From an uncultured Collinsella sp. (lineage in GTDB: Bacteria; Actinomycetota; Coriobacteriia; Coriobacteriales; Coriobacteriaceae), in the NCBI GenBank assembly GCA_902474645.1, contig CABRWN010000001.1:1-42136 (forward strand): a stretch of DNA of 42,136 nucleotides. The letters are read 5' to 3'. The stretch's first letter is position 1, and the number at the start of each line of letters is the position of its first letter. The translations under genes were made by a program, and so were the position numbers. Shown piece after piece: positions 11,406 to 42,136 of this stretch. The notes below the pieces were generated by a model. It ran no database searches. It saw only the letters and a program-made list of their open reading frames with translations, and was not told the origin of the DNA.

Positions 11406-12758
11406 TTAGCTCTGAGCTCGCACGCGAGCGGCGCCGAGTTCGGTCAGATGGTATTTCTGGCCATGCTTGATGACCAAGCCGGCCTGCGCCAAGTCATTGA
11501 GCGTGCGTGACCAAGTGGGGGCCGAGTTTCCAAACGCCCTCGCCAGATCGGTTGCACCGCACGCTTGATTTTGCGCCAGATAGCCCAGCGCGGCGTTGCC
11601 GCGATCGCTTACGAACACGTCCGGTTGTGGCTGCGCATACTGATTTGCTGCATTAGGATACATCATTTGAGCTGCTGGTTGTTGAGAACTCTGCATCGGC
11701 GGCATTTGCTGTTGAAAACTTTGAGGCCACTGTTGGTAAGGCTGTGGAGGCACCTGCTGGGCCCAGGGGTTGTACTGCTGCTGCGGCATCTGCTGGTACG
11801 GCTGCTGATATCCCTGCTGGTACTGCTGCGGGAACTGCTGGCCGCACCCCAGTGGCGACATCTGCTGATATGGATATCCCTGTTGGTACGGCTGATAGCC
11901 CATTTGCTGGCCACCCGGTGCCCCCGTCGCCTGCTGCATTGCTGCTGCATCCTGATCCGCCAGCGGCATGGCCTCTGGCATGTTTGGCGGCATCGACATC
12001 GATGCCGCTTGGGGTTCTTGTGTAGGAAGCATTCCGGGCTGCTGCATCTGTCCCACGGGGGGCTGCATCTGCTGCGTTGCCATGGGCTGCTGCGCAAAAG
12101 CTCCCGGCAGGGGATATGTGGGCTGCTCCGTCTCGGGCCGCACGGCAGCGCCGCGTCCGCCGGCACGCTCGATTTCCTGCACGCGTTTAGGGTTCAGGCT
12201 TACCGTAACCACGGTGCCGTTGCCCATGTTGTCCTCGATGGATACGGCACCGCCGGCGTTTTCCAAATACTCCTGCACCATGGGAAACCCTGCTCCGGTT
12301 CCACGGATATAGCGCTTCATCTTGCTGTTTGCACTGGTAACGCCAAAGTCGAAAGCGCGCTCCTTGTCGTCGATGCCGGGTCCTTGATCGGCAAAGCGGA
12401 TGGTGTCTCCGCCGTCCAGAATCGAGATGATGGGCTCGGCAAAGTGCGCGTGGATAAAGTTTTCGACAATCTCGCGGATGACCATGAGCGAGATATGGCC
12501 ACCTTGTTCTTTCATGCACTGGTAGACGGTGTTGGTGGTCTCTTCCAAATACGTGCGGACATCTTGCGGATCAATGACGATCACACGCGGTGTCGACAGC
12601 ATGTCGTCATAGACGGCGATGCGTGCGGCGTACATGGCTTTTGGCGCCTGCGTGGTCGTCTGCTCGCCTTCCTCACGCTCTTCGCGCACGCCGGTGATGT
12701 GCTCGTTGTCGGGTGCCGGGTCTCCGGAATCGACCATGGTGTAAAAGTCGTCAGACAT
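11406..12758 (-). CDS. GHKL (HATPase_c-like) ATP-binding protein with Gln/Pro-rich linker and C-terminal winged HTH
   Basis: N-box IREIVENFIHA, G1 FADQGPGI, G2 RGTGAGF, GTVVTV; ~170 aa Q/P/M/Y-rich region; C-terminal GATDLARAFGNSAPTWSRTLNDLAQAGLV...YHLTELG. Confidence 0.8.
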   Translation of the reverse strand: MSDDFYTMVDSGDPAPDNEHITGVREEREEGEQTTTQAPKAMYAARIAVYDDMLSTPRVIVIDPQDVRTYLEETTNTVYQCMKEQGGHISLMVIREIVENFIHAHFAEPIISILDGGDTIRFADQGPGIDDKERAFDFGVTSANSKMKRYIRGTGAGFPMVQEYLENAGGAVSIEDNMGNGTVVTVSLNPKRVQEIERAGGRGAAVRPETEQPTYPLPGAFAQQPMATQQMQPPVGQMQQPGMLPTQEPQAASMSMPPNMPEAMPLADQDAAAMQQATGAPGGQQMGYQPYQQGYPYQQMSPLGCGQQFPQQYQQGYQQPYQQMPQQQYNPWAQQVPPQPYQQWPQSFQQQMPPMQSSQQPAAQMMYPNAANQYAQPQPDVFVSDRGNAALGYLAQNQACGATDLARAFGNSAPTWSRTLNDLAQAGLVIKHGQKYHLTELGAARVRAQS

Positions 12759-28922: not shown

Positions 28923-31900
28923 CTAGCGCTTCTTTGGGATCGACCTAAGGCGAGCGAACCATAGGGCTGCGACACCCGAGGTCAGGAGCGCGGTGATGCA
29001 AGCGGCGATGGGAGCTGATCCTGTTGCCGGTAGGTCCTGCGGTAGGGTACAGCGTTGAATGACGCTGTCCTCGTCATGTGACTCAAGTTTATCGCCGCCG
29101 CCGTTGCGGCAAAGATCGACGCGCGCGCTGTTGGTGAGTGCGGTTTGGGGCGTATAAGCCGACGTTGCCTGCATGTGTACGACTGCGCCCCGAGCGTCTG
29201 TGCCAAGGATTGCTTTGGCATCGTCAAGGTCGTCGTGCTCATCTTTGAGATCATCGCGGGTCCAAGAATCCACATCGCTTCGAGTCGTAAAGTCGGCGGC
29301 TACCGCACCGTATTCAATTCGAATGCCCGTTACGACGGTATTGGACGCAAGGTCGAGTTCTTTCGCCTCGAGTGTGGTGGATTCCGTGGTCGAGACATCC
29401 GCCTTCCAGAGGTGCCAGCCGTCGTAATCGACGAGGCGGCAATCCTCACCCAGACTCTCCCTTACTTCGTCGGACTCAAGCCAAGGATTTTCGTGCCCAT
29501 CGTCAAGTGTCGCGTTTGCCGGCTCATCGACGTCTGTCGAGTCCAACGGCGTCGTGCGATACCACACGTTGCACAGACCATTGAGGTCGCCGATGGCGAC
29601 GGGGGTTTCGATTGAGACGAATCTCGCCGTATCGTCCTCGGCACACTCAAGATCATCGGTAATTGTGAACTCATCAACCCAGGTAGTTGAATCGTTTCGA
29701 GCGTCGATGGTATAGGAGAAAAGCCCGTCCGTATTGGTTTGCATCGCGGCACGGTTTTTACCATCGCCGTTAGCCAACAGGCCCTTTTCGATAGGTTGGA
29801 CAAGTTCCTGACGCTTGTCGACCTGCCCCTTGATCTCGATGGGCGCATCCTTCATCGCGACGGATTGGACTTCTCCCGTATCCTTTATTTCAAACGTTAT
29901 CTCCTCGGCAAGGTCATAGGTCCGCGGAGACATCATTTCGCGCAACGAGTAGGTGCCGGGTGCAAGATGTTCGACGCGGTGTGGCTTGTCGGATGAGGTC
30001 CAGGAGTCTATTTCGGTTTTATCGGGACCATATAAGGCGAGCTGTGCGCCTTCCACTTCCTGCTCACCGCTTGCATCGACCTTGGAGATATCAACCTTGG
30101 TGTAATCGTCGGATACGTTAAGCCGTGCTTCTACAACGGGTGTTTTCTGGTCGGCATAAGTAAGGTCGACAATATGGGTTGTCTGATCGAGCAAGAAGCC
30201 TGCCGGCGCTTGAGTCTCGACAACCTCGTAGCGTGCGGTGCCAGATCCCAGTGGGAGGTTGCCCGCGCGTGCTTCTCCAGTTTCATCCGTCGTGACGGTC
30301 GCGACAGTCTCACCGTCGAGCGCGGCAATGCTACCGTCGGGGCGCACGATATCACCCGAGGCACGGATCTCAAAGACGGCGCCCGCGAGGCTGCTGCCGT
30401 CTATGGCATCGGTTTTAACGATCCTGATGTTTCCGGTCGCGGCGTGGTCATAATACGAGGCGATTGCAACGGGCGTTAGGTTCATGTCGGCGGGTATGTT
30501 TACCTCGATCTCTTCGCCGACAAGATAGGGCTCTTTGGCCGAGGTTTCGCGTACATAATAGGTGCCCGGCACGAGCGATTCGGGCAGTGTGACGGTCCCG
30601 GTCGCGTCAGTCGTAAAGGTGTCCATTACGTTATGTGCTGGATACCAGCAAGTTTGTGAGACAGGTTCGTGATTGCTGTCGAGGAGTTGGAAGGTGAATC
30701 CGGCTAGGGGAACAGAAGCGCCTGTTTGGGCATCGCGTTTTACAATCTGGAGATGCGTCGACAGAGCGTGGTTGTCCACGATATATTGAAGCTCGGCGCC
30801 GTCGGAAATCTGATTGGCCCCGACGGTCCATTCCCCTGCACGTTTAAAACCCTCGGGGACGGTTTCCGGAACCTCGCGAACCGTGTAGCCGGCACGGTCG
30901 TATGGGACGGCTCCGTGGACACCGGCGGGTCGCTTGCCTGTGCCGAACCATGCTTCGGGCTGATCTTTGGTGGAGGCAAAGCCATAGATGTTTGTGATCA
31001 GTGTGCCAACAACCTGCTGAGAGCTGTTGCTGACAACCTCAAAGACAACACCACCCGCCGGCTGCTCCAGGCCGGATTGGTCGCTATTGCCGTAATCCTT
31101 GAATTTGGAAATCTCAAGGTTAAACGCAATGGGGATATCGGAAACGCGAGATTCGATCTCGACCACGCCCGAATCGCCGAGCTGGTCGGCTCCAACGGTA
31201 TAGGTCCAGCTGTCGTTGGATGGCAGGTAGCCCTCGGGGGCTTTTGATTCGTAGATGGTAAAGGTTCCTAAGGGGACATCGGCGAGGGCGGCCCGACCGC
31301 TTTCGTCGGTCGTGAGGATTTGTGCCCATCCAGGGGTTGATTGCGACACACACGTGAACTCTGCTCCTGCGAGTGAAGATCCCACCTGGGGGCCGGCATT
31401 CGTCGCGGCATCGAGTTTTACGATACGCAGGTTGATGGTGCCGGGCTGTTCATCAATGGCGACCCGCCCGCCGTCATTCCCCGTGGTAAAGGCAATACGA
31501 TCGTGGCGGGGGACATAGCCGGCCGGCGCCTTCGTTTCAACTAGGTAGTATGCCGTGTTGGGCAGAAGTGTTGCTTGCGCTCGACCGTTGCTGTCCATCT
31601 TGATGGTGCCGACACGCGCGCCGCTGGCGCTCTCAAAAATATCGAATGTTGCCCCGGTAAACTGATAGGTATTGTTTCCGCTGGTAATAACGGTGTTAGC
31701 AGACTGCTTTTGGAAGGAAACAGAGACCGCCGGCAGTACATAGAGCATGTCTTGACGTTTGCTGCCGCCCGATACGGCCCCTAGATAGCGTCGCGCGCGG
31801 TGCGGAGCGGCTTTGATGCTTCCTGATTTTGCGCTGTCGTGGAGCCACCGCGCAGCCGCCACGACTTCATTGTCGGCGGTAAAGTGTCCGCTCTTGGTTT

Positions 31901-32354
31901 TACCCTGAGCGGTCGTGTAGGAGTAGGTGCCGTCGACATGGGTAGTGCCGTTGAGCATCCATACGGCAAGCTGGGTGGCGGCGCGGGCGCGATCGGGTGA
32001 AAGATGGTAACCGCCAAACGACGTGGTGGTTGGATATCCGTGACAAACGATTGCCGCGAACTCGTCGTCGAGCCACACCCAGCCTTGATCAAAGTTGAGC
32101 CATGGGCCGCCCGGTTTGGTGGGGCCGGGGCGCTCCTGGTTCATGCAATAGGCAATCGAGGTGTCTTGAGCTTCATACTTGCCGATGAAGAAGGGTCCAC
32201 AATCATCGCTAATAGTGCGGAAGCCGAGCTGGTCGTAGCCATCGACGGCAAATGCGGCTCCCGGTGCCAGGCAGCCGAAAAGCAGGAAGAGGAGCAGGAG
32301 CAGCGGACCTGTTGCGATTGCGCTGTGGACAGAGTGCGTGGGTGCGTTGGACAT
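28923..32354 (-). CDS. sortase-anchored surface adhesin with thioester domain (TED) and SpaA/Cna-B isopeptide repeats
   Basis: Signal peptide; AYCMN, ATQLAVW and RQDML TED motifs; repeated L.GA.F / Y...E..AP.GY units; C-terminal LPATG + TM + basic tail. Confidence 0.9.
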   Translation of the reverse strand: MSNAPTHSVHSAIATGPLLLLLFLLFGCLAPGAAFAVDGYDQLGFRTISDDCGPFFIGKYEAQDTSIAYCMNQERPGPTKPGGPWLNFDQGWVWLDDEFAAIVCHGYPTTTSFGGYHLSPDRARAATQLAVWMLNGTTHVDGTYSYTTAQGKTKSGHFTADNEVVAAARWLHDSAKSGSIKAAPHRARRYLGAVSGGSKRQDMLYVLPAVSVSFQKQSANTVITSGNNTYQFTGATFDIFESASGARVGTIKMDSNGRAQATLLPNTAYYLVETKAPAGYVPRHDRIAFTTGNDGGRVAIDEQPGTINLRIVKLDAATNAGPQVGSSLAGAEFTCVSQSTPGWAQILTTDESGRAALADVPLGTFTIYESKAPEGYLPSNDSWTYTVGADQLGDSGVVEIESRVSDIPIAFNLEISKFKDYGNSDQSGLEQPAGGVVFEVVSNSSQQVVGTLITNIYGFASTKDQPEAWFGTGKRPAGVHGAVPYDRAGYTVREVPETVPEGFKRAGEWTVGANQISDGAELQYIVDNHALSTHLQIVKRDAQTGASVPLAGFTFQLLDSNHEPVSQTCWYPAHNVMDTFTTDATGTVTLPESLVPGTYYVRETSAKEPYLVGEEIEVNIPADMNLTPVAIASYYDHAATGNIRIVKTDAIDGSSLAGAVFEIRASGDIVRPDGSIAALDGETVATVTTDETGEARAGNLPLGSGTARYEVVETQAPAGFLLDQTTHIVDLTYADQKTPVVEARLNVSDDYTKVDISKVDASGEQEVEGAQLALYGPDKTEIDSWTSSDKPHRVEHLAPGTYSLREMMSPRTYDLAEEITFEIKDTGEVQSVAMKDAPIEIKGQVDKRQELVQPIEKGLLANGDGKNRAAMQTNTDGLFSYTIDARNDSTTWVDEFTITDDLECAEDDTARFVSIETPVAIGDLNGLCNVWYRTTPLDSTDVDEPANATLDDGHENPWLESDEVRESLGEDCRLVDYDGWHLWKADVSTTESTTLEAKELDLASNTVVTGIRIEYGAVAADFTTRSDVDSWTRDDLKDEHDDLDDAKAILGTDARGAVVHMQATSAYTPQTALTNSARVDLCRNGGGDKLESHDEDSVIQRCTLPQDLPATGSAPIAACITALLTSGVAALWFARLRSIPKKR

Positions 32355-32608
32355 GGCTGCTCCTTATCCCTCGTGCGTCGCACGGGGAGGCTGCGACGCG
32401 TAGGATGAGGCTACCCCCGAGGTTCATGCGGGTAAGTACCGGAGCCTGACCAAAAGCTTGCCCAATTCCTGACAAATTGAGCTCAAATACAACAATCAAG
32501 CAAAAGTGCAGGTAGAAGATAGGGAGAACAGGAAGTCAAAGGTCCTCGTCTCCACAATTGACGCGATTTTCAAACGAATCTCCACAGCTAAAACAAGCAT
32601 CGCCACCC

Positions 32609-32638
32609 TTGTATCGAACAAGACAACCGCGTTATACT
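32609..32638 (+). promoter_or_regulatory. putative promoter of tRNA-Gly
   Basis: TTGTAT, 18 bp spacer, TATACT, 13 nt before the tRNA. Confidence 0.5.
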
Positions 32639-32651
32639 ATCCCCCACATAT

Positions 32652-32726
32652 GCGGGCATCGCCAAGTGGTAAGGCATCAGCTTCCCAAGCTGACACTCGC
32701 GGGTTCGAGTCCCGTTGCCCGCTCCA
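32652..32726 (+). tRNA. tRNA-Gly(CCC)
   Basis: Acceptor GCGGGCA/TGCCCGC, anticodon arm TCAGC-TTCCCAA-GCTGA, GGTTCGAGTCC T-loop, encoded CCA. Confidence 0.96.
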
Positions 32727-32736
32727 TTCGAATTTC

Positions 32737-32769
32737 AGGCACGGTAACGTTTCGTTACCGTGCCTTTTT
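32737..32769 (+). terminator. intrinsic terminator after tRNA-Gly
   Basis: AGGCACGGTAACG-TTT-CGTTACCGTGCCT + T-run. Confidence 0.85.
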
Positions 32770-32780
32770 CAATAAAGTGC

Positions 32781-33047
32781 CGGGACTCGAACCCGACAGG
32801 GTGCGAGCGTTAAATAAACGCGAAGCGTTTATAGCGAGCAGGCAAGGTCGCCGATAGGCGGCCGCAGCCGGTGCGCGTCCGCGACGCGGGCGCGCGGACG
32901 TCCCGTTGCCCGCTCCATCGAGTACGGGGGACCTCGGGAACGTCGGGTCCAACCCGCTGTGCCCGTGCGTGTGCGCGGACCGGGTCTGCCGACCGCAGCC
33001 GGTGCGGATTTGCGAAGCAAATACGCGGATGTCCCCATGGCTGCTCT
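32781..33047 (+). repeat. tRNA-Gly-linked structured repeat units (one complete, one degenerate)
   Basis: 15-bp antisense T-arm copy 32781-32795; 19-bp tRNA 3'-end direct repeat 32900-32918; CCGCAGCCGGTGCG repeated at 32862 and 32993; degenerate 3'-end copy 33031-33047. Confidence 0.8.
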
Positions 33048-33150
33048 TGCGGCAAAATGTTAGGTTAATGCCTGCTGCCCATACTTGCACCTGCGCACGG
33101 TACAATGGTTGGGTTACGACCAACGTGCCAATAACCAAAAAGGAGCCGCT

Positions 33151-34497
33151 ATGATCGATCGCTATACCCGCCCGGAGATGGGACACATCTTCTCCCTCGA
33201 GAACAAGTACGCCATTTGGCAGGAGATCGAGGTCTTGGCCTGCGAGGCCCAGGCGGAGCTCGGCAAGATCGGTATTTCCAAAGACGAGGCCCAGTGGATC
33301 CGCGACCATGCCAACTTTGAGAAGGCGAAGGTCGATGAGATCGAGGAAGTCACGCGCCACGACGTCATTGCCTTTCTGACCAACATGAAGGAATACATCG
33401 ATGCCGATGTTCCCGAGGGCGACCCCAAGCCCAGCCGCTGGGTTCACTATGGCATGACCAGCTCCGATCTGGGCGACACGGCCCTGTGCTACCAGCTCAC
33501 CCAGGCCTGCGACCTGATCATCGAGGACGTCAAGAAGCTCGGCGAGATTTGCAAGCGTCGCGCCTTTGAGGAGCGCAACACGCTCTGTGCCGGCCGCACT
33601 CATGGCATCCACGCCGAGCCGATGACCTTCGGCATGAAGTTTGGCTCTTGGGCCTGGGAGCTCAAGCGCGATCTGGATCGTCTTGAGGACGCCCGCAAGA
33701 ATGTTGCCTTCGGTGCCATCTCGGGCGCTGTCGGCACGTACAGCTCCATCGAGCCGTTTGTCGAGGAGTACGTCTGCGAGCACCTGGGCCTGGTTCACGA
33801 CCCGCTGTCCACGCAGGTTATCAGCCGCGACCATCACGCCTATCTCGCCGGCGTTCTCGCCACCACCGCAGCCACCTGCGAGCGCATCGCTACCGAGGTT
33901 CGCAATCTACAGAAGACCGATACGCTCGAGGCCGAGGAGCCGTTCCGTAAGGGCCAAAAGGGCAGCTCAGCCATGCCGCACAAGCGCAACCCCATCACCA
34001 TGGAGAAAGTCTGCGGTCTGTCGCGCGTCGTGAAGTCCAACGCCCAAGTTGCCTTCGATAACGTCGCCCTGTGGCACGAGCGTGACATTTCGCACTCCTC
34101 TGCCGAGCGCGTCGCCCAGGCCGACAGCTTCATCGCCCTCGACCACATGTTCCAGTGCCTCATTCGCGTTATCGACGGCCTGCAGCTGTACCCTGCCCGC
34201 ATGATGGCCAACCTCAATAAGACCCGCGGCCTCATCTTCTCCTCCAAGGTGCTGCTCGCCCTCGTCGACACGGGCATCACCCGCGAGGACGCGTACGCCA
34301 TTGTGCAGGAGAACGCCATGGCAACCTGGCACGAGGTACAGGATTGTGTCTCCGGCCCTACCTTTAAGGAGCGTCTCGAGGCTGACCCGCGCTGCACCGT
34401 CAGCCAGGAAAAGCTCGATGAGATCTTTGATCCGTGGGACTTCCTCACCCGTATTGACACGGTCTTTGATCGTCTGGAGCAGCTGAGCTTCGAGTAG
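33151..34497 (+). CDS. purB: adenylosuccinate lyase
   Basis: MIDRYTRPEM, HDVIAF, HYGMTSSD, GRTHGIHAEP, GSSAMPHKRNP; AAGGAG RBS before ATG 33151. Confidence 0.97.
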   Translation: MIDRYTRPEMGHIFSLENKYAIWQEIEVLACEAQAELGKIGISKDEAQWIRDHANFEKAKVDEIEEVTRHDVIAFLTNMKEYIDADVPEGDPKPSRWVHYGMTSSDLGDTALCYQLTQACDLIIEDVKKLGEICKRRAFEERNTLCAGRTHGIHAEPMTFGMKFGSWAWELKRDLDRLEDARKNVAFGAISGAVGTYSSIEPFVEEYVCEHLGLVHDPLSTQVISRDHHAYLAGVLATTAATCERIATEVRNLQKTDTLEAEEPFRKGQKGSSAMPHKRNPITMEKVCGLSRVVKSNAQVAFDNVALWHERDISHSSAERVAQADSFIALDHMFQCLIRVIDGLQLYPARMMANLNKTRGLIFSSKVLLALVDTGITREDAYAIVQENAMATWHEVQDCVSGPTFKERLEADPRCTVSQEKLDEIFDPWDFLTRIDTVFDRLEQLSFE

Positions 34498-34625
34498 GTT
34501 CGGGCATAACGTTAGCTTTTTAGGGCGCTTTGCTGGTAATGTGTGTTGCCGGCGAAGCGCCTCGTTGCATTTAGGGAAAGACGGGGATAATAGTCGTCTC
34601 GAATAACATTCTGAGAGGGGATCGC

Positions 34626-34889
34626 ATGATTTCGTTTGATTACAAGCCTCAGGGCGTGTGTGCTCGCAATATTCACCTTGACCTTTCCGATGACGGCAAC
34701 AAGGTGATGGGCGTTGAGTTTACCGGTGGCTGCGACGGCAATCTCAAGGCAATCTCCAAGCTGGTCGAGGGCGCTCCTGCCGATCGCGTAATCGAGGTTC
34801 TCGCCGGTAATACCTGCGGTATGAAAAAGACCTCCTGCGCCGACCAGCTTACGCGCGCTATCGAGGCCGCTCGCGCCGAGATCGCCTAA
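34626..34889 (+). CDS. TSCPD-domain protein (TIGR03905-like)
   Basis: GVC..., FTGGCDGNL, TCG.K.TSCADQL. Confidence 0.85.
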   Translation: MISFDYKPQGVCARNIHLDLSDDGNKVMGVEFTGGCDGNLKAISKLVEGAPADRVIEVLAGNTCGMKKTSCADQLTRAIEAARAEIA

Positions 34890-36100
34890 TGGGTATCGCC
34901 GATCACATCAAGAACGGAATATCGCGTCGCGGCTTTGTACTCGGTGGGGCTGCCGCGGGCGCTGCCACGGTGCTTGCCGGATGCTCGAAAAAAACGGGTA
35001 CCAGCGATGATGCTGCCGGCGAGCCGCAGGTTATCAAGGACGATTCCAAAATCATCTCGATTACGGATGAGTACGAGGCAGTCGACATCGATCTTGAGCC
35101 GGCGGCGTCGTGGACGCTGCCGCTGGGTACGCTGCTGTACTACTGCGACGGCGATTACGCCGCGGCGATGATGGCGCCCGCATCGGCACTGCACGCCAAC
35201 ACACTCGGTGTGCTCAACCTGGGCGATGGCTCGCTTACCACATTAATCGAGGATCCTATCGAGGGCACGGGATATGCATTCTACGATGTCCGTGCCGGCG
35301 ACGGCGTGTTTGCGTGGGTTGAGATGAACTTTGCCAATTCATCGTGGAAGCTCTACGCTCAAAATCTGTCGGGCGCTTCGCTCTCTGGCGATGTGGTTGA
35401 GCTCGATCGAGGTGGCAAGGACTATGATCCGCCCCTGTTTACGGCGTTCGGGTCATCGGTTATCTGGTATAAAATGCCTTCGGCAGGCGGCAATAAAACG
35501 AGTAGTGATTCGTTTTGCTATCGTCGCTCGCTTGATGAATCCAAGGCCGAGGCAATTTGGAAATCGACGGGCCGCTTTGCATCGGCCCCGCGCGCGAGCG
35601 ACGGCATTTTGACCATCTCGCCGCGTGTCCGCAACGACGAGGGCGTCTACTACGGCATAACGGCAATCGATCTGACAGATGGCAACAACACCAAACGTGC
35701 CCAGCTAGTCCTTCCCTCGTCAGTCTCGCCTTTCGAGGCCGTATATATGGGCGATACCTTCGTGTTTTCTATCGAGGCGACCTATAGTGGCGTGGGCAGC
35801 TTGGGCAACATGGGCACGTATATCGGTAATGAGGGAGGGCCGTACCTCTTTCTGTCACGCGAGCCGCTCGCATGCGCGGCTGGCAAGAAGAATAAATACC
35901 TTGTTAAGGTACAGGCGTCGCATTTCCTGATCGACACCTCTGCCAAGACCTATGGCTCGCTGCTGTCGCCCGACCGCGCTTTGGAGTATGGCGATTATCC
36001 AGCTACGGCGGGAAAATCGGACTCATTCCTTACGTACGCCACGGTGCGCAACAGCCAGGGTATACCAGAGACGGTCACTGCACGCCTATTCTCTCTTTAA
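34889..36100 (+). CDS. Tat-exported lipoprotein of unknown function
   Basis: Twin-arginine ISRRGFVLG and lipobox VLAGC; TAATG overlap with the upstream gene. Confidence 0.8.
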   Translation: MGIADHIKNGISRRGFVLGGAAAGAATVLAGCSKKTGTSDDAAGEPQVIKDDSKIISITDEYEAVDIDLEPAASWTLPLGTLLYYCDGDYAAAMMAPASALHANTLGVLNLGDGSLTTLIEDPIEGTGYAFYDVRAGDGVFAWVEMNFANSSWKLYAQNLSGASLSGDVVELDRGGKDYDPPLFTAFGSSVIWYKMPSAGGNKTSSDSFCYRRSLDESKAEAIWKSTGRFASAPRASDGILTISPRVRNDEGVYYGITAIDLTDGNNTKRAQLVLPSSVSPFEAVYMGDTFVFSIEATYSGVGSLGNMGTYIGNEGGPYLFLSREPLACAAGKKNKYLVKVQASHFLIDTSAKTYGSLLSPDRALEYGDYPATAGKSDSFLTYATVRNSQGIPETVTARLFSL

Positions 36101-36253
36101 GCTTAGAGGGGTTAAAAAGGCGCCAACAGGGGAATAAACGCGTTGTAATTGTGAGTACCGCCCGCCGAGCTGCCGCGTCATAGCGGCATCCGGCGGGCTC
36201 AGGTGCGTTAAAATGGGCTTGTTCTTAGCTAATTGAGACAGGGGGGCCGTGTT

Positions 36254-36976
36254 ATGGCTTCAGATGCAAAAAAGATTCTGCTGGTCGAGGATGAGAAGGC
36301 AATCCGTGACGCCGTCGCTGCCTATCTCGAGCGCGAAGGCTACTGGGTTGTGGGCGTCGGCGACGGCCAGTCCGCGATCGAGGAGTTCGAGAAGCATCAG
36401 TTCGACCTGGTCGTGCTCGACCTTATGCTCCCCAAGATCCCCGGCGAGCGCGTTTGCCGCACCATTCGCGATACCTCGGATGTCCCCATCATCATGCTGA
36501 CGGCTAAGGGCGAGATCGAGGACCGTATTATCGGTCTTGAGCTCGGCGCCGACGACTATCTGATTAAGCCGTTCTCGCCGCGCGAGCTCGTCGCCCGCGT
36601 TCGCGCTCTGTTCCGCCGTGCCCATCAGGCCGACGAGCCCGCCGTCGAGGTGCTCGACTTCGGCGATCTGGTCATCGATATCTCGGGCCACAAGATCTTG
36701 GTCGAAGGCAAGGAAGTCGATCTGACGGCTTCCGAGTTCAAGCTGCTCACCACGCTCGCCCGCCATCCCGGCCGTGTGTATAACCGCATGGAGCTGGTCG
36801 AGAAAGTGCTCGGGTATGACTTTGAGGGCTATGAGCGCACTATCGATAGCCACGTGAAGAACCTTCGCGCCAAGCTGGGCGATGATCCCAAGAAGCCCAA
36901 GTGGCTCTACACCGTCCATGGTGTCGGCTATCGCTTCGAGGCTCCGGCCAAGACCGATAAGTCGGACGAGAAATAG
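36254..36976 (+). CDS. OmpR/PhoB-family response regulator
   Basis: LLVEDE, LDLMLP, IIMLTAK, GADDYLIKPF, RTIDSHVKNLRAKL, TVHGVGYRF. Confidence 0.95.
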   Translation: MASDAKKILLVEDEKAIRDAVAAYLEREGYWVVGVGDGQSAIEEFEKHQFDLVVLDLMLPKIPGERVCRTIRDTSDVPIIMLTAKGEIEDRIIGLELGADDYLIKPFSPRELVARVRALFRRAHQADEPAVEVLDFGDLVIDISGHKILVEGKEVDLTASEFKLLTTLARHPGRVYNRMELVEKVLGYDFEGYERTIDSHVKNLRAKLGDDPKKPKWLYTVHGVGYRFEAPAKTDKSDEK

Positions 36977-36987
36977 GGAAATCACAT

Positions 36988-38553
36988 ATGACACCTGCGC
37001 GCTTTGAAATCGGACAAAAGCACAAGCAGGAGAGCGAGGCGGGTTCCAAGGCTAGTTGGAACACGCCTCGTTCCGATTCACGGCCAACGATGAGCTATCC
37101 CTCGCGCATGGCACTTGCTTTTGCTCTGACATCGCTCATGACAGTATTGGTGCTGGTGGGCGTTGTCTCTGTTGTGTGGGGCACGGTCTTTTCGGATTAC
37201 ACACGCTCCAATATCGTCGAAATCGCAAATTCCGCTGCCGAGAAGTTGGCAACCTCATATGAGGAAAACGGCTCTTGGACCGCGGGGGAACTGCGCACGG
37301 TCGCAACGTCGAGTTTGGTTTCCGACGATCTGGGTATGCAGGTCGTCAATAAAAAGGGCGTGATCGTTTATGACGATTCCTGGCCCTCGGCAAGCGCCAC
37401 CGCCGATGTACGCGAAAACCAGGCTACGACCGACGACACGAGCGGCAAGAGGGCATCGCATAGCCCGGTCTCGTCTGCTCCAACCGACTCCGATAGCGTT
37501 GCTAACGTCGAGATTGTAACGTCTTCCGGCGAGCATGTCGGACAGGTAAAGCTGTGGGCCATCGGCTCCGACGCGCTGCTCACCAAGGCGGACTCTGCGT
37601 TTAGGGAGAAGACCTTTAACGCCATGGCCCTCGCCGCGGTTGTTGCAATCTGCATTTCGGTCGTTATCGGATCGCTCGTGTCGCGCATGCTCACCAAGCC
37701 GATTCATCGCATCACCAGTACCGCAAAGCAAATCCGTGACGGCGACCTGTCGGCTCGCACGGGACTGCGCGGTGATGACGAGATCGATCAGCTGGGTGAG
37801 ACCTTCGATGAGATGGCCACTTCGCTCGAGAAGGATATGAAACACGAGAAGCGCCTGACCTCTGATGTTGCCCACGAGCTGCGCACGCCGCTCATGGCCA
37901 TGCTTGCAACGGTCGAGGCCATGCAGGATGGCGTGTATCCCACTGACGATGAGCATTTGGAGACCGTTGCTTCTGAGACGCGTCGCCTGGCTCGTCTGGT
38001 GCAGCAGATGCTCGACCTATCGCGTATGGAAAACAGCACGGCTCCGCTCAATCTAGAACCGGTGGACATGGTTCCGTTCGTGCGATCGATTGTGAACGGC
38101 CAGGAGCGTCTGTTTGCCGACCGTGACCTTCGTCTTCGCTTTGCAGATGAAACCCAAGGGCACGACGATGTCGTCGAAGCCGATCCCGACATGATCACGC
38201 AATGCGTCATCAACCTCATGAGCAACGCCATGCGCTACACCCCCGAGGGCGGTTGGGTCGTGGTGTCGGTGCTCAGTGACCGCAAGCATGTCAGTATTGC
38301 CGTTTCGGATACCGGTATCGGTATTGCCAAGGACGATCTGTCGCGCATCTTCGGGCGGTTTTGGCGCGCCGATGCCAGCCGCGCCCGCGAAGCTGGCGGC
38401 CTGGGCGTTGGCCTCGCCGTGACCAAGCAGATCGTCGAGCGTCACCATGGCTACATATCCGTGGAGTCGGAGCTTGGAAAGGGTACGACTTTTACAATTC
38501 ATCTGCCCCGCGAGCACACGGCGGACGCGGCATCTACTACAATGGAGCACTAG
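36988..38553 (+). CDS. membrane sensor histidine kinase (HAMP-HisKA-HATPase_c)
   Basis: Two TM helices, HAMP, DVAHELRTPL, NLMSNAMRY, DTGIG, GLGVGL. Confidence 0.95.
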   Translation: MTPARFEIGQKHKQESEAGSKASWNTPRSDSRPTMSYPSRMALAFALTSLMTVLVLVGVVSVVWGTVFSDYTRSNIVEIANSAAEKLATSYEENGSWTAGELRTVATSSLVSDDLGMQVVNKKGVIVYDDSWPSASATADVRENQATTDDTSGKRASHSPVSSAPTDSDSVANVEIVTSSGEHVGQVKLWAIGSDALLTKADSAFREKTFNAMALAAVVAICISVVIGSLVSRMLTKPIHRITSTAKQIRDGDLSARTGLRGDDEIDQLGETFDEMATSLEKDMKHEKRLTSDVAHELRTPLMAMLATVEAMQDGVYPTDDEHLETVASETRRLARLVQQMLDLSRMENSTAPLNLEPVDMVPFVRSIVNGQERLFADRDLRLRFADETQGHDDVVEADPDMITQCVINLMSNAMRYTPEGGWVVVSVLSDRKHVSIAVSDTGIGIAKDDLSRIFGRFWRADASRAREAGGLGVGLAVTKQIVERHHGYISVESELGKGTTFTIHLPREHTADAASTTMEH

Positions 38554-38653
38554 CTTTTCGCTATTCGGTGAAGGAGGGGCCGCGTCCCTGCCGCTCCGAG
38601 TTTGCGAAAACATGCGGGAAAGAACCCGCATTTCTGTCGTATTTAGGTAAGGA

Positions 38654-39550
38654 GTGACTCACGTGACAACGATGGAGCGTCGTCCGGATTCCCGTGGCAA
38701 GGTTCGTGATATCTACGATGCCGGTGAAAACCTGCTGATGGTCGCCACCGACCGCATTTCTGCGTTCGACTTCATTCTTCCCGACGAGATTCCGTTTAAG
38801 GGAGAGGTGCTCAACCGCATCTCGGCATTCTGGTTCGATAAGTTTGCCGATATCGTTCCCAACCACCTCGTTTCCATCGATCCGGCGGATTTCCCCGAGG
38901 AGTTTGCCGAGTATCGTGACTACCTCGCAGGCCGCGCCATGCTGGTCAAGAAGGCCCAGACGATTCCTATCGAGTGCATCGTCCGCGGCTATCTGACCGG
39001 TTCGGGCAAGAAGACCTATGACGAGAACGGCACCGTCTGCGGCATTCAGCTGCCCGAGGGTCTGACCGAGGCCTCCAAGCTTCCCGAGCCGCTGTTCACG
39101 CCGTCCACGAAGGCCGAGATCGGCGACCACGACGAGAACATTTCGTTCGAGCGTTGCTGCGAGATCGTGGGTGAGGACATCGCCGCGCAGATTCGCGACC
39201 TGTCCCTCAAGATTTACAAGGCTGCTGCCGAGTATGCAGCGACCCGTGGCATCATCATCGCCGACACCAAGTTCGAGTTCGGTGTCATCGATGGCAAGGT
39301 CACGCTGATCGACGAGTGCCTCACGCCCGACTCCAGCCGTTTCTGGCCTGCCGCCAGCTACGAGGAGGGCAAGATTCAGCCCAGCTACGACAAGCAATTC
39401 GTCCGCAATTGGCTCAAGGCCAACTGGGATATGACGGGGGAGACCCCGCACCTGCCCGCCGAGGTCATCGATGGCACGTCCGAGCGCTATCGCGAGGCCT
39501 TCCAGATCATCACGGGCTCCCAGTTCACAAGCATGAAGGAGAACGCATAA
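38654..39550 (+). CDS. purC: SAICAR synthase
   Basis: GKVRDIY, ATDRISAFD, ECIVRGYLTGS, ADTKFEFG, TPDSSRFW, SYDKQFVR. Confidence 0.97.
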   Translation: MTHVTTMERRPDSRGKVRDIYDAGENLLMVATDRISAFDFILPDEIPFKGEVLNRISAFWFDKFADIVPNHLVSIDPADFPEEFAEYRDYLAGRAMLVKKAQTIPIECIVRGYLTGSGKKTYDENGTVCGIQLPEGLTEASKLPEPLFTPSTKAEIGDHDENISFERCCEIVGEDIAAQIRDLSLKIYKAAAEYAATRGIIIADTKFEFGVIDGKVTLIDECLTPDSSRFWPAASYEEGKIQPSYDKQFVRNWLKANWDMTGETPHLPAEVIDGTSERYREAFQIITGSQFTSMKENA

Positions 39551-40126
39551 GTGAGTACCCGTAGCGCCACGAACAAGCGCACGCAATCCCACGAGGTTAC
39601 CGGGGTTGCGCGCAAGTCCGCCGCATCTGCTAAACCCGCCCGCCAGGCAGCGAGCTCCGTTCGCGTCGTGCCGGCTTCGTCTAAAGCTCGCCGCAAAGAG
39701 CTCGAGAAGGGTGAAAACCTGGAAGGCCTTTCCAAGGAGGAGAAGCGCGCCCGCAAGGCCAAACAGCGTGCTCGCGAGGATCGTATCTACACGGTGTCGA
39801 ATATTCTCCTCAAGCAGGACGAGGACTACACCAAGCGCCGTCGTATCTGGTGGGCCGTGCTCGCCATCGGCATGGTACTCGTCGTGGCAATTTGGGCTTC
39901 GCTCTACTTCGCTCCCGGCGGCACGGTGTCCAGTCCCGTCCAGATGGTCGGCATCGTTTTGTCCTATGTCATCATTCTGGGTGATTTTATCTACGACTTC
40001 GTTCGTATTCGTCCCCTGCGCAACATGTACCGCACGCAGGCCGAGGGCATGTCCGAGAACAAGCTCAACGCTCTTATCGAACGCTCGGCTGCCGAGGAGG
40101 ACAAGAAGGACTCCAAGAAGAAGTAG
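39551..40126 (+). CDS. hypothetical membrane protein (basic N-terminus, two TM helices)
   Basis: GTG start immediately after the purC stop; K/R-rich N-terminus; two hydrophobic segments; terminator downstream. Confidence 0.75.
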   Translation: MSTRSATNKRTQSHEVTGVARKSAASAKPARQAASSVRVVPASSKARRKELEKGENLEGLSKEEKRARKAKQRAREDRIYTVSNILLKQDEDYTKRRRIWWAVLAIGMVLVVAIWASLYFAPGGTVSSPVQMVGIVLSYVIILGDFIYDFVRIRPLRNMYRTQAEGMSENKLNALIERSAAEEDKKDSKKK

Positions 40127-40157
40127 CGTTTGTATCCATACATATCGCTAAGATATA

Positions 40158-40188
40158 AGGCGCGTCGTTTTTGCGGCGCGCCTTTTTA
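40158..40188 (+). terminator. intrinsic terminator
   Basis: AAGGCGCGTCG...CGGCGCGCCTT + T-run. Confidence 0.7.
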
Positions 40189-40203
40189 CTGTTCTATAGA
40201 TAG

Positions 40204-41496
40204 ATGGAGTGGCACATGATTCGAGCTGCCCTGACGGTCGAAGAGGCTCTGGAGGGCATGAAGGCCCTGGAGCCCAAGATTAAAAACTACGCGCGCCTGG
40301 TCGTCCGCAAGGGCGTAAACGTCAAGCCCGGCCAGGAGGTCGTCGTTCAGTCTCCGGTCGAGTGCGCGCCGTTTGCGCGCGTGGTGGTCGCGGAGGCCTA
40401 TGCTGCCGGCGCCGGCCACGTGACGGTCATTTGGGCCGATGATGCCGTGACGAGGCTCACGTACGAGCATGTCGAGAAAAGCTATTTTGAGCAGACACCC
40501 GAGTGGAAGCGCATGCAGCTGGATTCCTTGGCCCAGGATGGTGCCTGCTTTGTCTTTATCGAGGGTGCGGATCCTGCGGCCCTCAAGGGCGTCGATCCAG
40601 CCAAGCCGGCCGCGGCATCAAAGGCGAGGAATACGCAGTGCAAAGTTTTCCGCCGTGGACTGGATTACAACATCAATCCGTGGTGCATCGCCGGCGCTCC
40701 GGTCGTGGCTTGGGCGCGCGAGGTGTTCCCGGGAGACGCCGATGAGGTTGCAATCTATAAGCTGTGGAATGCGATTCTGCACACCGCTCGCGCCGATGGC
40801 CAGGACCCAGAGAGTGACTGGGAACTCCATGACGCCGCATTCGAAAAGAACCTGCGTTTCCTGAACGACAATCGTTTCGACTACCTGCATTACACCGCGG
40901 CAAATGGAACCGATCTGACGATTGGTATGACGAAAGGTCACGAGTGGGCCGGCGGCAAGGGCAAGACGCCCGATGGGCACCCTTTCTTCCCCAACATTCC
41001 CACCGAGGAAGTCTTCACTTCGCCCGATCGCATGCGCGCCGACGGTATCGTGTACTCGGCCATGCCGCTCATCCACCACGGCAATAAAGTCGACGATTTT
41101 TGGATTAAGTTTGAGGGAGGCCGCGTGGTGGACTACGACGCCCGTGTGGGCAAGGCGACGCTCGCAAGTATCATCGATACTGACGAGGGCGCTGCTCACC
41201 TGGGAGAGGTCGCGCTCATTTCCAAGAACACGCCGATCCGCGAAAGTGGTGTTCTGTTCTACGATACGCTCTATGACGAGAACGCTAGCTGCCATCTCGC
41301 GCTAGGTGTCGGTTTCCCCGAATGCATCGAGGGTGGGTATGACATGTCCAAGGAGGAGCTCCTGGAGCATGGCGTTAACGTCTCGAGCACGCACGTCGAT
41401 TTTATGATCGGCACGGACGACATCGATATTACGGGCATTACGCCTGATGGACGTGAAGTTGTGATTTTCCAGAACGGCCAATGGAGTTGGGAATAG
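40204..41496 (+). CDS. pepS: M29 family aminopeptidase (AmpS/PepS/AmpT)
   Basis: YARLVVRKGVNVKPGQ, PNIPTEEVFTSP, LGEVAL, LYDENASCHLALG, HVDFMIG; exact start uncertain. Confidence 0.9.
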   Translation: MEWHMIRAALTVEEALEGMKALEPKIKNYARLVVRKGVNVKPGQEVVVQSPVECAPFARVVVAEAYAAGAGHVTVIWADDAVTRLTYEHVEKSYFEQTPEWKRMQLDSLAQDGACFVFIEGADPAALKGVDPAKPAAASKARNTQCKVFRRGLDYNINPWCIAGAPVVAWAREVFPGDADEVAIYKLWNAILHTARADGQDPESDWELHDAAFEKNLRFLNDNRFDYLHYTAANGTDLTIGMTKGHEWAGGKGKTPDGHPFFPNIPTEEVFTSPDRMRADGIVYSAMPLIHHGNKVDDFWIKFEGGRVVDYDARVGKATLASIIDTDEGAAHLGEVALISKNTPIRESGVLFYDTLYDENASCHLALGVGFPECIEGGYDMSKEELLEHGVNVSSTHVDFMIGTDDIDITGITPDGREVVIFQNGQWSWE

Positions 41497-41515
41497 TCCC
41501 AGACCGTGGTACAAT
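41487..41515 (+). promoter_or_regulatory. putative promoter of tRNA-Lys
   Basis: TTGGGA, 17 bp spacer, extended -10 TGGTACAAT, 9 nt before the tRNA. Confidence 0.55.
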
Positions 41516-41524
41516 GCCACCCGC

Positions 41525-41600
41525 GGGCCGTTAGCTCAGCTGGCAGAGCAGGGGACTTTTAATCCCAAGGTCCAGGGTTCGAACCCCTGACGGCCCACCA
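41525..41600 (+). tRNA. tRNA-Lys(TTT)
   Basis: Acceptor GGGCCGT/ACGGCCC, anticodon loop CTTTTAA, GGTTCGAACCC T-loop, encoded CCA. Confidence 0.96.
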
Positions 41601-41605
41601 TAGAA

Positions 41606-41643
41606 AAGAAAGCGATCAACTCCGGTTGGTCGCTTTTTTTGTT
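41606..41643 (+). terminator. intrinsic terminator after tRNA-Lys
   Basis: AAAGCGATCAAC-TCCG-GTTGGTCGCTTT + T-run. Confidence 0.8.
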
Positions 41644-41845
41644 GCCGGTGCGCGGGTTCGAACCCGTCGGGGCGCGGAGCTGAGTAAACGCGTGAGCGTT
41701 TGCCAGTGCAGCGCGCAAGGCGCGAAAGCGCCGCAGCGGCCGCCTGCGAAGCAGGCTGAACCCCTGACGGCCCACCCAAAGATTGTTGAGACGGTCAACT
41801 TCGGTTGGCCGTCTTTTTTGTCGCCCTTTCATGGGTTCGAACCCG
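41644..41845 (+). repeat. tRNA-Lys-linked structured repeat unit plus the start of a second unit
   Basis: GGGTTCGAACCCG at 41654 and 41833; 19-bp tRNA 3'-end direct repeat at 41758-41776; duplicated terminator-like hairpin ~41789-41820. Confidence 0.8.
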
Positions 41846-42136
41846 TATCTATCTATATATAAGAACGCTTGGCGAACAAAACCCGCCTTTTACCGACGGG
41901 AAACAAATAGCCTGATGCTTTTGGAGTAAAGTGGCGCCCCAGAGATGACCGATGCCTTAACACCTATAAACCAGCTGGTCATCGTCAATATCAGAAGCAA
42001 TGCTTCAGTTTTAACCTCAGTGGTGCGACTGAGGGACCTATTCATTTGTGAACAAAATATGGAGTGCCAGATTCCCGCCCGCGGGGCCCCTCCGGTCTGG
42101 CAATATATCTCCTTGCCGCGCGGCCCGGTCGGACCG

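Follow-up and report, generated by a model that had tools for sequence, protein, structure and literature searches.

The tRNA-linked repeats (TLRs) of Escherichia coli go back to a description by Egan and Landy (1978), with a later catalogue by Rudd (1999), both as cited in PMC8144298. [quoted passage not shown] Within the same sections (PMC8144298, 2021), function is known only for three 5S-linked, read-through small RNAs, rrA/rrB/rrF, and the rrnB TLR is said to arise by read-through of T1 and to be processed at the repeated 3′ end. Here we analyzed a 42,136-nucleotide (nt) stretch of DNA, hereafter the window, from an uncultured Collinsella sp. of the order Coriobacteriales (GenBank assembly GCA_902474645.1, contig CABRWN010000001.1). 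Two short stretches of the window, behind its tRNA-Gly(ccc) and tRNA-Lys(ttt) genes, are members of a family of gene-less, hairpin-rich repeats of ∼125 nt located behind tRNA and transfer-messenger RNA (tmRNA) terminators in this order. We refer to them as the Gly unit and the Lys unit.

The likeness to TLRs extends to details of the E. coli locus sequences. The tyrT/tyrV repeats (178-nt units; RtT/RttR RNA) carry a 10-nt arm antisense to tRNA-Tyr nt 59–68, a fold-back (TCGACC-AA-GGTTCGA) that re-pairs the 5′ half of the T-arm, C-GCA-G triloop hairpins, and a final copy running from nt 58 to CCA; folded as DNA, the tyrT unit closes its arm on the copy (z-score −4.2). The rrnB repeat lies between two terminators and contains a GCGAAGC hairpin, and an antisense arm was not seen in it. 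Like TLRs, Collinsella units lie immediately 3′ of a stable RNA gene (tRNA or rRNA in E. coli) and in its orientation, have a tail equal to the 3′ end of that gene, and occur in tandem copies; their layout is matched by the antisense arm, fold-back and T-loop junction of tyrT. They differ in showing no detectable homology (our covariance model scored 7.5 bits on the E. coli tyrT locus), in having a fixed four-hairpin core with a nearly invariant AAACGC/GCGTTT stem and an intrinsic terminator in every period, in their longer antisense arm (10–22 nt), and in occupying many more tRNA host species, with up to 19 units per genome.

The Rfam RtT model (RF00391) had no match at E up to 1 in positions 32000–42136, and its best score in the source genome was 13.8 bits against a gathering score of 45. 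No Rfam family matched the units at or above its gathering score in the entire window. Collinsella-1 RNA (RF01700), named in PMC2864571, gave no match at E up to 1 in positions 32000–42136 and none at gathering score window-wide. Our literature search for T-arm-antisense, tRNA-linked elements found only the E. coli TLR paper (PMC8144298). The original prediction, made from the letters of the window, had offered the units as a candidate new system unless an already described family explained them; the architecture proves to be one that E. coli TLRs already show, and no Rfam model matches. By sequence comparison, the Collinsella family appears to be new, of the known E. coli TLR kind in architecture, with homology to it undetectable. 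We give an even chance to our preferred reading, that the units are non-autonomous, strand-specific DNA repeats, selfish or semi-domesticated and TLR-like, that spread by means of T-arm and terminator anchors.

The window is the entire contig C1 of the source genome (G000), a 2.0-Mb draft with 60% G+C; other G codes denote genomes of relatives, and L codes extracted locus sequences. All genomes used are drafts, and everything said below about mechanism derives from sequence comparison only. The only ncRNA genes in the window are tRNA-Gly(ccc) and tRNA-Lys(ttt) (ARAGORN; Rfam at gathering score). Both units were found where the original prediction had placed them, with their parts in the order it described (Table 1): the T-arm antisense, CCC-N4-GGG, the AAACGC/GCGTTT stem, the stem interrupted by an AA/GCA internal loop, the stem with a GCGA(A/C)GC cap, and finally the tRNA 3′ end from within the T-loop. 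It had also treated 32781–41845 as a single system; the 9 kb separating the units carries ordinary housekeeping genes, namely purB, a two-component pair, purC, and one for an M29 peptidase, and the units are two separate loci.

A layout survey of the 41 tRNA/tmRNA genes of G000 revealed units behind Gly(ccc), Lys(ttt), Ser(gct), Ser(cga), Val(tac), Glu(ttc), Lys(ctt) and tmRNA, and a truncated copy behind Gln(ttg). Several G000 contigs terminate directly behind a tRNA. Motif scanning of the same genome recovered eight full units, all eight located 58–82 nt 3′ of a tRNA or tmRNA gene on the same strand. One additional regular-expression match, on contig C9, was not a unit. A covariance model made from nine units was then applied to 121 genomes sampled from the order and found matches in 40 of them; in the subset of 100 genomes with completeness of at least 90%, 29 had matches. 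By family, genomes with matches numbered 15/16 in the window's own family and 13/16, 4/17, 4/16, 2/12, 1/16, and 0/16 in the others. In all 20 match regions fetched from G085 and G031, the match closely follows a tRNA or tmRNA gene that points the same way; Leu(taa), Leu(cag), Gly(gcc), Arg(acg), Gln, Phe, Ser(tga), Ala, and Thr were further hosts, and the host range comprises at least 15 different tRNA species. The tRNA linkage foreseen for further family members was thus present in every case examined, and the recurrence of the layout goes well beyond chance.

Genes downstream of the repeat arrays include arginine biosynthesis genes and glutamine synthetase III, and in the window purB, purC and others; integrated islands, which we had expected behind second repeat copies, were rejected, the genes there being housekeeping. 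At the Val, Glu, and Gln loci a conserved box of ∼45 nt (…AAAAAATGGCAAAWATGAGTACTGTTAC…) was observed 3′ of the arrays, recurring inverted ∼170–230 nt further on (…GTRACAGTACTCATATTTG…) in several sequences: L001 (G000:C33, ∼8270–8420), L002 (G000:C48, ∼11850–11930), L043 (G085, ∼470–700) and the downstream parts of L062/L063. This box could be an inverted-repeat mini-element or a shared operator before the arg operon and glutamine synthetase III.

Unit anatomy was compared with host genes for 40 strong matches, a set that includes orthologues and tandem copies and so is not one of independent observations. A unit is made up of four parts: a T-arm-antisense arm, a small hairpin re-pairing the 5′ half of the T-arm, three more hairpins, and a copy of the tRNA tail that in many cases continues through trailer and terminator. 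The tail copy was present in 39 of the 40 matches and mostly reaches nt 75–76. Its start lies in the T-loop without exception, at nt 59 in 20 units and at nt 56–57 in 19 (n = 39), and copies starting at nt 59 have a conserved GA+C just before them. The 5′ arm is an exact antisense of 9–22 nt, from nt 49–53 to nt 59–72 of the tRNA, and arms track the host-specific T-loops of Gly, tmRNA, Arg, Leu(cag), Lys(ctt), Phe, and Ala. When 37 distinct arms were compared with 41 tRNAs, no tRNA gave a better antisense match than the host in 26, the Gly arm matching its own tRNA best; the remaining 11 had a longer match to another tRNA, partly since the measure allows no mismatch, and the Val and Glu arms are merely generic T-arm sequence. 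The antisense orientation claimed by the original prediction is demonstrated by units with asymmetric T-loops (Gly, tmRNA, Arg, Leu-cag), whereas for the Lys arm GGGTTCGAACCC it is undecidable because that arm is its own reverse complement.

Four hairpins, hp0–hp3, form the core between arm and copy. In hp0, the TCGAACCC of the arm folds back on a GGGTGCGA-like sequence, and its CCC/GGG pair becomes CCT/AGG behind tRNA-Arg and Leu(cag). The AAACGC/GCGTTT stem of hp1 is nearly invariant, and hp2 is enclosed by an outer stem with an AA/GCA internal loop. The last hairpin, hp3, is highly variable (32 distinct sequences; at the Gly locus relatives have a different stem, GGATTTGC-GAA-GCAAATAC), is at least 6 bp long in 37 of 38 units, and ends 0–6 nt ahead of the junction with the tail copy. 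The stem by which the arm can close on the 3′ copy has a median perfect run of 7 bp. Many loci have truncated end copies whose break point varies, lying behind the arm, behind hp0, or within hp1, and the terminator-side part is always kept.

Support for the fold comes from comparison across units, single-sequence z-scores being modest (−2.6 for the Gly unit, −1.8 for the Lys unit). An alignment of 48 matches, fitted to the model so that its counts lean toward structure, has 87.7% of cells paired against 78.3% in shuffles, with 21 of 28 base pairs varying on both sides. Its covariation score was 0.271, compared with 0.139 in shuffles (0 of 500 reached it) and 0.03–0.08 with pairing partners slid, a control that preserves relatedness and scores far lower. 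The claim of one conserved, covarying fold tailored to the host tRNA is therefore upheld. Compared with its complement, the tRNA-sense strand gave the more stable fold for 37 of 38 cores under RNA parameters and for all 38 under DNA parameters; G-T pairs total 68 on the sense strand vs. 27 on the complement.

Among 138 hairpin loops, GNA occurred in 45 of 55 triloops and GNNA in 52 of 70 tetraloops; only 27 of these 52 were GNRA, i.e., there is no purine preference. Passages of a 2026 review (PMC13037366) attribute extraordinary stability to GCGNAGC and GCGNNAGC as DNA, their RNA versions being much less stable, and report such hairpins at single-strand DNA priming sites and phage N4 promoters. 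Given this loop type and the DNA-specific stability of such mini-hairpins, the loops point to folded single-stranded DNA, with RNA still possible. The folded-DNA idea of the original prediction is in this way strengthened by both strand specificity and loop type. The GCGAAGC heptamer it emphasized does occur at 32820, 33012, and 41746, but is unenriched in the window (10 matches vs. 14.6 expected).

That the sense strand is also the transcribed one bears on the main rival explanation, namely that the units are functional read-through small RNAs, regulatory or protein-sponging like E. coli RrA/B/F. Polymerase would pass the tRNA terminator, transcribe the unit, and stop at the duplicated terminator, and the tail and antisense arm would form an acceptor/T-stem-like helix with a free NCCA end that lets tRNA-processing enzymes release a stable RNA. 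The layout tRNA-T1-unit-3′ copy-T2 is that of rrnB (5S-T1-TLR-T2), the fold has many G-U pairs, its minimum-energy form closes the arm on the 3′ copy in 30 of 39 units with RNA parameters vs. 20 of 39 with DNA parameters, and the structure is conserved over five families without a visible mobilizing enzyme. Yet a strong terminator precedes every unit, no consistent promoter was seen on reading the spacers before units, and the GNA triloops and GNNA loops without purine preference are typical of DNA hairpins rather than of RNAs. Units are moreover dispensable, varying in copy number between close species, they match no Rfam family, and a role as RNA leaves the origin of matched units behind at least 15 tRNAs unexplained. 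The RNA libraries covered, of 2–6 million letters each, consist of contigs of up to 49 kb, which amounts to whole-genome cover and is not informative on transcription. We regard a read-through RNA role as possible, though on the unlikely side; by analogy with E. coli, it would be compatible with units being DNA repeats.

Evidence for gain and loss comes from orthologous sites, as had been anticipated for mobile units, and the cleanest empty/filled pair is the tRNA-Phe site, which has no unit in G000 but has one in G085. Relative to the empty site, the filled one has an additional ∼125 nt (spacer, arm, and four hairpins) and a 63-nt direct repeat, which runs from nt 57 to the end of the terminator T-run and is identical to the resident sequence. 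By inspection, the repeat also extends to the T-run at Leu(cag), at Leu(taa) in two genomes, and at Lys(ttt) of G031. Across 30 pairs, a crude ungapped classifier assigned repeat ends to the T-run in 8, to the tRNA end in 9, into the next arm in 7, and to “other” in 6. A regular expression for hp1 was likewise crude, and key loci were judged by inspection. At the Glu locus, about 9 genomes have a full unit and about 13 lack exactly one 188-nt period, retaining a “solo” truncated arm. Three tandem units with a period of 185 nt follow tRNA-Val in G085, and units follow two of its three copies of tRNA-Arg. These three complete tRNA-Arg(acg) genes lie within 800 nt (L042; G085:C1:72000–74500), the second and third each with promoter-like sequence upstream.

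The Gly locus has 0, 1, 2, or at least 4 repeats among relatives. Between tRNA-Gly and purB, the distant congener G014 has neither unit nor antisense arm, and G008 has one unit and no second cassette; the extra 131-nt repeat is present in G000 and others, and at least three tandem copies of it in G013. Contigs from another strain's RNA library omit 131 nt at 32918–33046. This second Gly repeat reuses just the last hairpin and a decayed tRNA tail. Repeat periods are 131–190 nt and contain no open reading frames (ORFs), the sole exception being a 2.3-kb insert between tail copies of the G010 Gly array, with a Schlafen/ATPase-like ORF of 557 aa. The expectation of ORFs between units is thus borne out in one array, inserts otherwise being tiny and ORF-less.

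Direct repeats of the 3′ part of a tRNA around foreign DNA are the classic signature of integration, and the units could be debris or minimal derivatives of integrase elements: attP-sized remnants resembling cis-mobilizable elements (CIMEs), left over by deletion from T-loop-integrating phages or islands that carried a replacement tRNA end and terminator, and then mobilized again or accreted through an integrase acting in trans. As in integrase islands and CIMEs, the proximal copy restores the tRNA and copies pile up in tandem at one tRNA. Relatives differ in the terminator adjoining tRNA-Gly (at least two alleles), the distal 3′ copy there is decayed, the gene-bearing G010 insert lies between 3′-end copies, and prophages do use these tRNAs. 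Units differ from such islands in that they lack an integrase, comprise no more than ∼125 nt of conserved hairpins, use at least 15 tRNA targets, and duplicate the local terminator; the tRNA-Phe repeat in particular is the resident terminator. A single integrase cannot serve so many different tRNAs, and the junction lacks the left half of a T-arm core site. No integrase adjoins any unit, the genomes sharing only Xer-like recombinases and scattered phage integrases.

Phage records contained no unit, with one 38-nt match at chance level, and the single match among plasmid records was a 0.9-Mb Collinsella aerofaciens replicon. Ten IMG/VR contigs matched. Each of the seven inspected is a prophage occupying the 3′ end of tRNA-Glu, -Lys, or -Gln and still joined to host flank, and the units lie in that flank, outside attR; these prophages cross over at the extreme tRNA 3′ end (∼7–8 nt of identity ending in CCA), not in the T-loop. 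In these prophage sequences (L056–L065) the host junction retains ∼7–8 nt of tRNA tail, and several have a LysM-type lysin gene just inside the phage end. An origin as integrase debris appears quite improbable.

No recombinase was found in the window or beside any unit, and contig C1 had no PF00589 match, confirming what had been noted for the window. Tyrosine recombinases number five in G000, on other contigs, and 4–9 in four relatives, none near a unit. The one translated (364-aa ORF, G000 contig C46) is Xer-like and adjoins pyrG, similar matches occurring in all four relatives; the remainder are scattered phage integrases, and no integron integrase was among the matches of these five genomes. 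We also observed, at G000:C55:3957–4487 and matching places in G119, G078, and G085, a tyrosine-recombinase frame of ∼328 aa that a single in-frame TAG interrupts in each of these four genomes, which makes it a conserved pseudogene unless the codon is read through.

Y1-HUH genes occurred in all five genomes of the genus tested. Three diverged Y1-HUH (IS200-like) paralogues with a C-terminal helix-turn-helix (HTH) domain are present in G000 at single-copy-like loci (C53:5952–6722, C85:4974–5783, C189:1695–2720), and relatives of them in 44 of the 121 genomes of the order. These genes raise the alternative that units are non-autonomous single-strand transposons of the IS200/IS605-REP type, or attC-like sites, with a trans-acting HUH enzyme or integron-type integrase cutting the folded sense strand beside hp3 and, after GTTC, the T-loop of the hairpin extruded by the tRNA gene, and then joining the two. 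The junction does fall after GTTC in 19 of 39 units, and the hairpins are of the DNA mini-hairpin type and confined to the sense strand. As in IS200/IS605 elements, a strand-specific subterminal hairpin lies next to the junction (hp3); as in the REP/BIME-RAYT and PATE families, units are small, gene-less, multi-copy sequences with one-strand hairpins and candidate Y1-HUH genes in the genus. Order-wide, units and Y1-HUH genes co-occur more often than not (both in 27 genomes, units only in 13, protein only in 17, neither in 64), but this table is dominated by one family, and outside the window's family the association is weak (11, 13, 17, and 63 in the same order). Y1_Tnp had no match in G020, G072, and G114, which are 99–100% complete with 3–4 units each and make up three of the five unit-bearing genomes of other genera. 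No Y2/IS91 transposase was found in five genomes, a result of little weight because the control genomes were silent as well.

REPs are dispersed over many intergenic regions, whereas every Collinsella unit lies behind a tRNA gene; units bear target-derived arms and a long duplication, which REPs and PATEs do not, and IS200/IS605 elements insert without target duplication, in contrast to the 63 nt duplicated at tRNA-Phe. A tRNA end brought from a donor locus would, in addition, disable a different tRNA. With integron attC sites the units share an imperfect palindrome whose ends pair in one strand, a crossover-like junction at the stem foot, and arrays anchored at a fixed site, but their pairing ends are tRNA copies rather than R′/R″ core sites, their “cassettes” are 77–190 nt without ORFs, and there is no integron integrase. 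Transposition or recombination by an HUH or attC-type enzyme is accordingly very improbable in our estimate. Of the ideas in the original prediction, the integron-like gene-cassette system is not sustained, nor is a co-occurring tyrosine recombinase or HUH gene.

An 18-nt copy beginning at nt 59 suggested a tRNA-copying retro-origin, which was dropped as the leading idea because reverse transcriptase, found in two of five genomes, is missing from the two with most units. Xer, Y1-HUH, and reverse-transcriptase genes do not track units, and the lack of a dedicated enzyme that does so fits a route through host machinery.

For the units as TLR-like DNA repeats, we propose that units reach tRNA genes, or are copied there anew, via two near-universal anchors: on the left the T-run of the terminator, on the right the conserved T-loop/T-stem sequence. 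At insertion the local gene would be the source of the 3′ copy, making its match to the host automatic; we infer a local origin because at clean sites the copy equals the resident tail plus terminator. Since the boundaries lie on sequences shared by nearly all loci, they suggest either copy-choice between loci, i.e., template switching by the replication/repair machinery on an exposed sense strand, or a structure-specific nuclease that reads the T-arm hairpin and acts between C56 and G57. Homologous recombination between repeated tRNA tails would grow and shrink the arrays. The sense strand of a unit folds into a closed multi-hairpin, its 5′ arm paired with the duplicated 3′ copy, and the arm may be kept complementary by selection on this closing stem or by correction against the nearby T-arm. 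Target copying of this kind explains why hosts are many, why tails are perfect and truncations variable, and why an element-borne enzyme is absent.

Several observations weigh against it. In 9 of 30 loci, both window units included by a strict test, the repeat goes no further than CCA and the terminators behind its two copies are not the same, and such repeats look like the work of a classical element that supplies both tRNA end and terminator. Four hairpins with compensatory changes are conserved over five families, which implies selection on the fold, so that a passive copy-choice repeat is insufficient; this conservation needs a structure-reading enzyme, of which none was found, or a host function. 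By itself, target copying explains neither the four-hairpin conservation nor the long antisense arms, which extend to nt 67–72 behind Ser and tmRNA genes, a reach beyond point mutation that calls for a templated step. G-U-type pairs are frequent in units, as in RNA structures, and E. coli TLRs are, in the sections of PMC8144298 used here, transcribed, some being working small RNAs. Many of the counted units are orthologues or tandem copies, hence non-independent, and the covariation alignment was fitted to its own model. The mechanism itself is read from anatomy, no intermediate, enzyme, or event having been seen.

A broader proposal would unite these units and E. coli TLRs in one universal class of “target-copying” elements, in which a mobile hairpin core builds matching arms from the tRNA gene at its landing site without an element-encoded recombinase. 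A snap-back copy of the T-arm would form one side and a re-copied tRNA tail and terminator the other, by way of single-stranded DNA and the cell's replication/repair enzymes, or of a nuclease reading the T-arm hairpin. We consider such a class unlikely on present comparisons.

Features of the two loci are compiled in Table 1. Behind tRNA-Lys(ttt), as behind tRNA-Gln(ttg), a truncated arm is followed by ATCTAYCTATATAWAAGA-like AT-rich sequence (window 41847–41870; G000:C221, ∼1665–1690; the downstream part of L064), and both G000 contigs stop soon after; this sequence may be the end of another element. Elsewhere in the window, positions 28923–32354 of the minus strand encode a 1143-aa surface protein of adhesin or pilin type, with a thioester domain and five SpaA/prealbumin-like repeats. 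A 63-nt GC-rich repeat at 42067–42129 equals the start of G000 contig C19, is the only sequence shared by the window end and that contig, and is a likely cause of the assembly break.

Table 1. Features of the Gly and Lys loci, in window coordinates.
Feature	Position	Strand	Basis or remark
tRNA-Gly(ccc), host gene of unit 1	32652-32726	+	ARAGORN; Rfam tRNA, 63.5 bits
Intrinsic-terminator-like hairpin and T-run between tRNA-Gly and unit	32736-32769	+	Reading of sequence; at least two alleles in relatives
Gly unit, full extent	32778-32917	+	
Gly 5′ arm, exact 15-nt antisense of tRNA-Gly nt 50-64 (T-stem, T-loop, T-stem)	32781-32795	+	
Gly hp0: TCGAACCC of the arm pairs back over a GACA loop with GGGTGCGAG; duplex resembles T-arm 5′ half	32786-32807	+	Fold
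Gly hp1: AAACGC-GAA-GCGTTT stem-loop, most sequence-conserved part of the family	32814-32832	+	Fold; helices 4 and 5 with 97-100% of cells paired
Gly hp2: GGC-AA-[GGTCGCC GATA GGCGGCC]-GCA-GCC, hairpin within outer stem, conserved internal loop	32841-32869	+	
Gly hp3: GC-rich, GAC triloop, end 3 nt ahead of junction	32872-32896	+	
Direct copy of tRNA-Gly nt 59-76 (T-loop end to CCA), conserved GGAC before	32900-32917	+	
Second, shorter Gly cassette: ∼77 nt variable, GCAGCCGGTGCG, hp3 copy, GGAT, decayed tRNA 3′-end copy	32918-33046	+	
hp3 copy of second Gly cassette, GCGAAGC loop	33004-33026	+	
Decayed tRNA tail of second Gly cassette	33031-33046	+	
tRNA-Lys(ttt), host gene of unit 2	41525-41600	+	ARAGORN, Rfam
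Terminator-like hairpin and T-run 3′ of tRNA-Lys	41609-41640	+	Reading of sequence
Lys unit	41649-41777	+	Covariance-model score 113.3 bits
Lys arm, GGGTTCGAACCC	41654-41665	+	
Lys hp0	41663-41672	+	
Lys hp1 including lower stem, GTGA loop	41670-41716	+	
Lys hp2, GAAA loop	41719-41732	+	
Lys hp3, GCGAAGC	41742-41756	+	
Copy of tRNA-Lys nt 57-75	41758-41776	+	
Diverged second terminator hairpin, 3′ of tRNA-Lys tail copy	41790-41819	+	Same layout in metagenomic relative L064
Truncated further unit: arm GGGTTCGAACCCGT alone, then unrelated AT-rich sequence	41833-41846	+	

TLRs have been known in E. coli since 1978, and their origin and role are, in the sections of PMC8144298 cited here, still open. 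To that picture the Collinsella-type family adds clean empty and filled sites, a sharp T-loop junction, duplication of the local terminator, and a strand-specific four-hairpin core, so that the origin of such repeats and their matching to tRNAs become directly testable in a cultivable gut bacterium. In practical terms, the units break short-read assemblies at tRNA genes and can pass for integration scars or tRNA fragments. If units are read-through RNAs or extra terminators, they would bear on the insulation and processing of tRNA operons; if their arms are copied from the target, they would represent a new way for DNA to aim itself.

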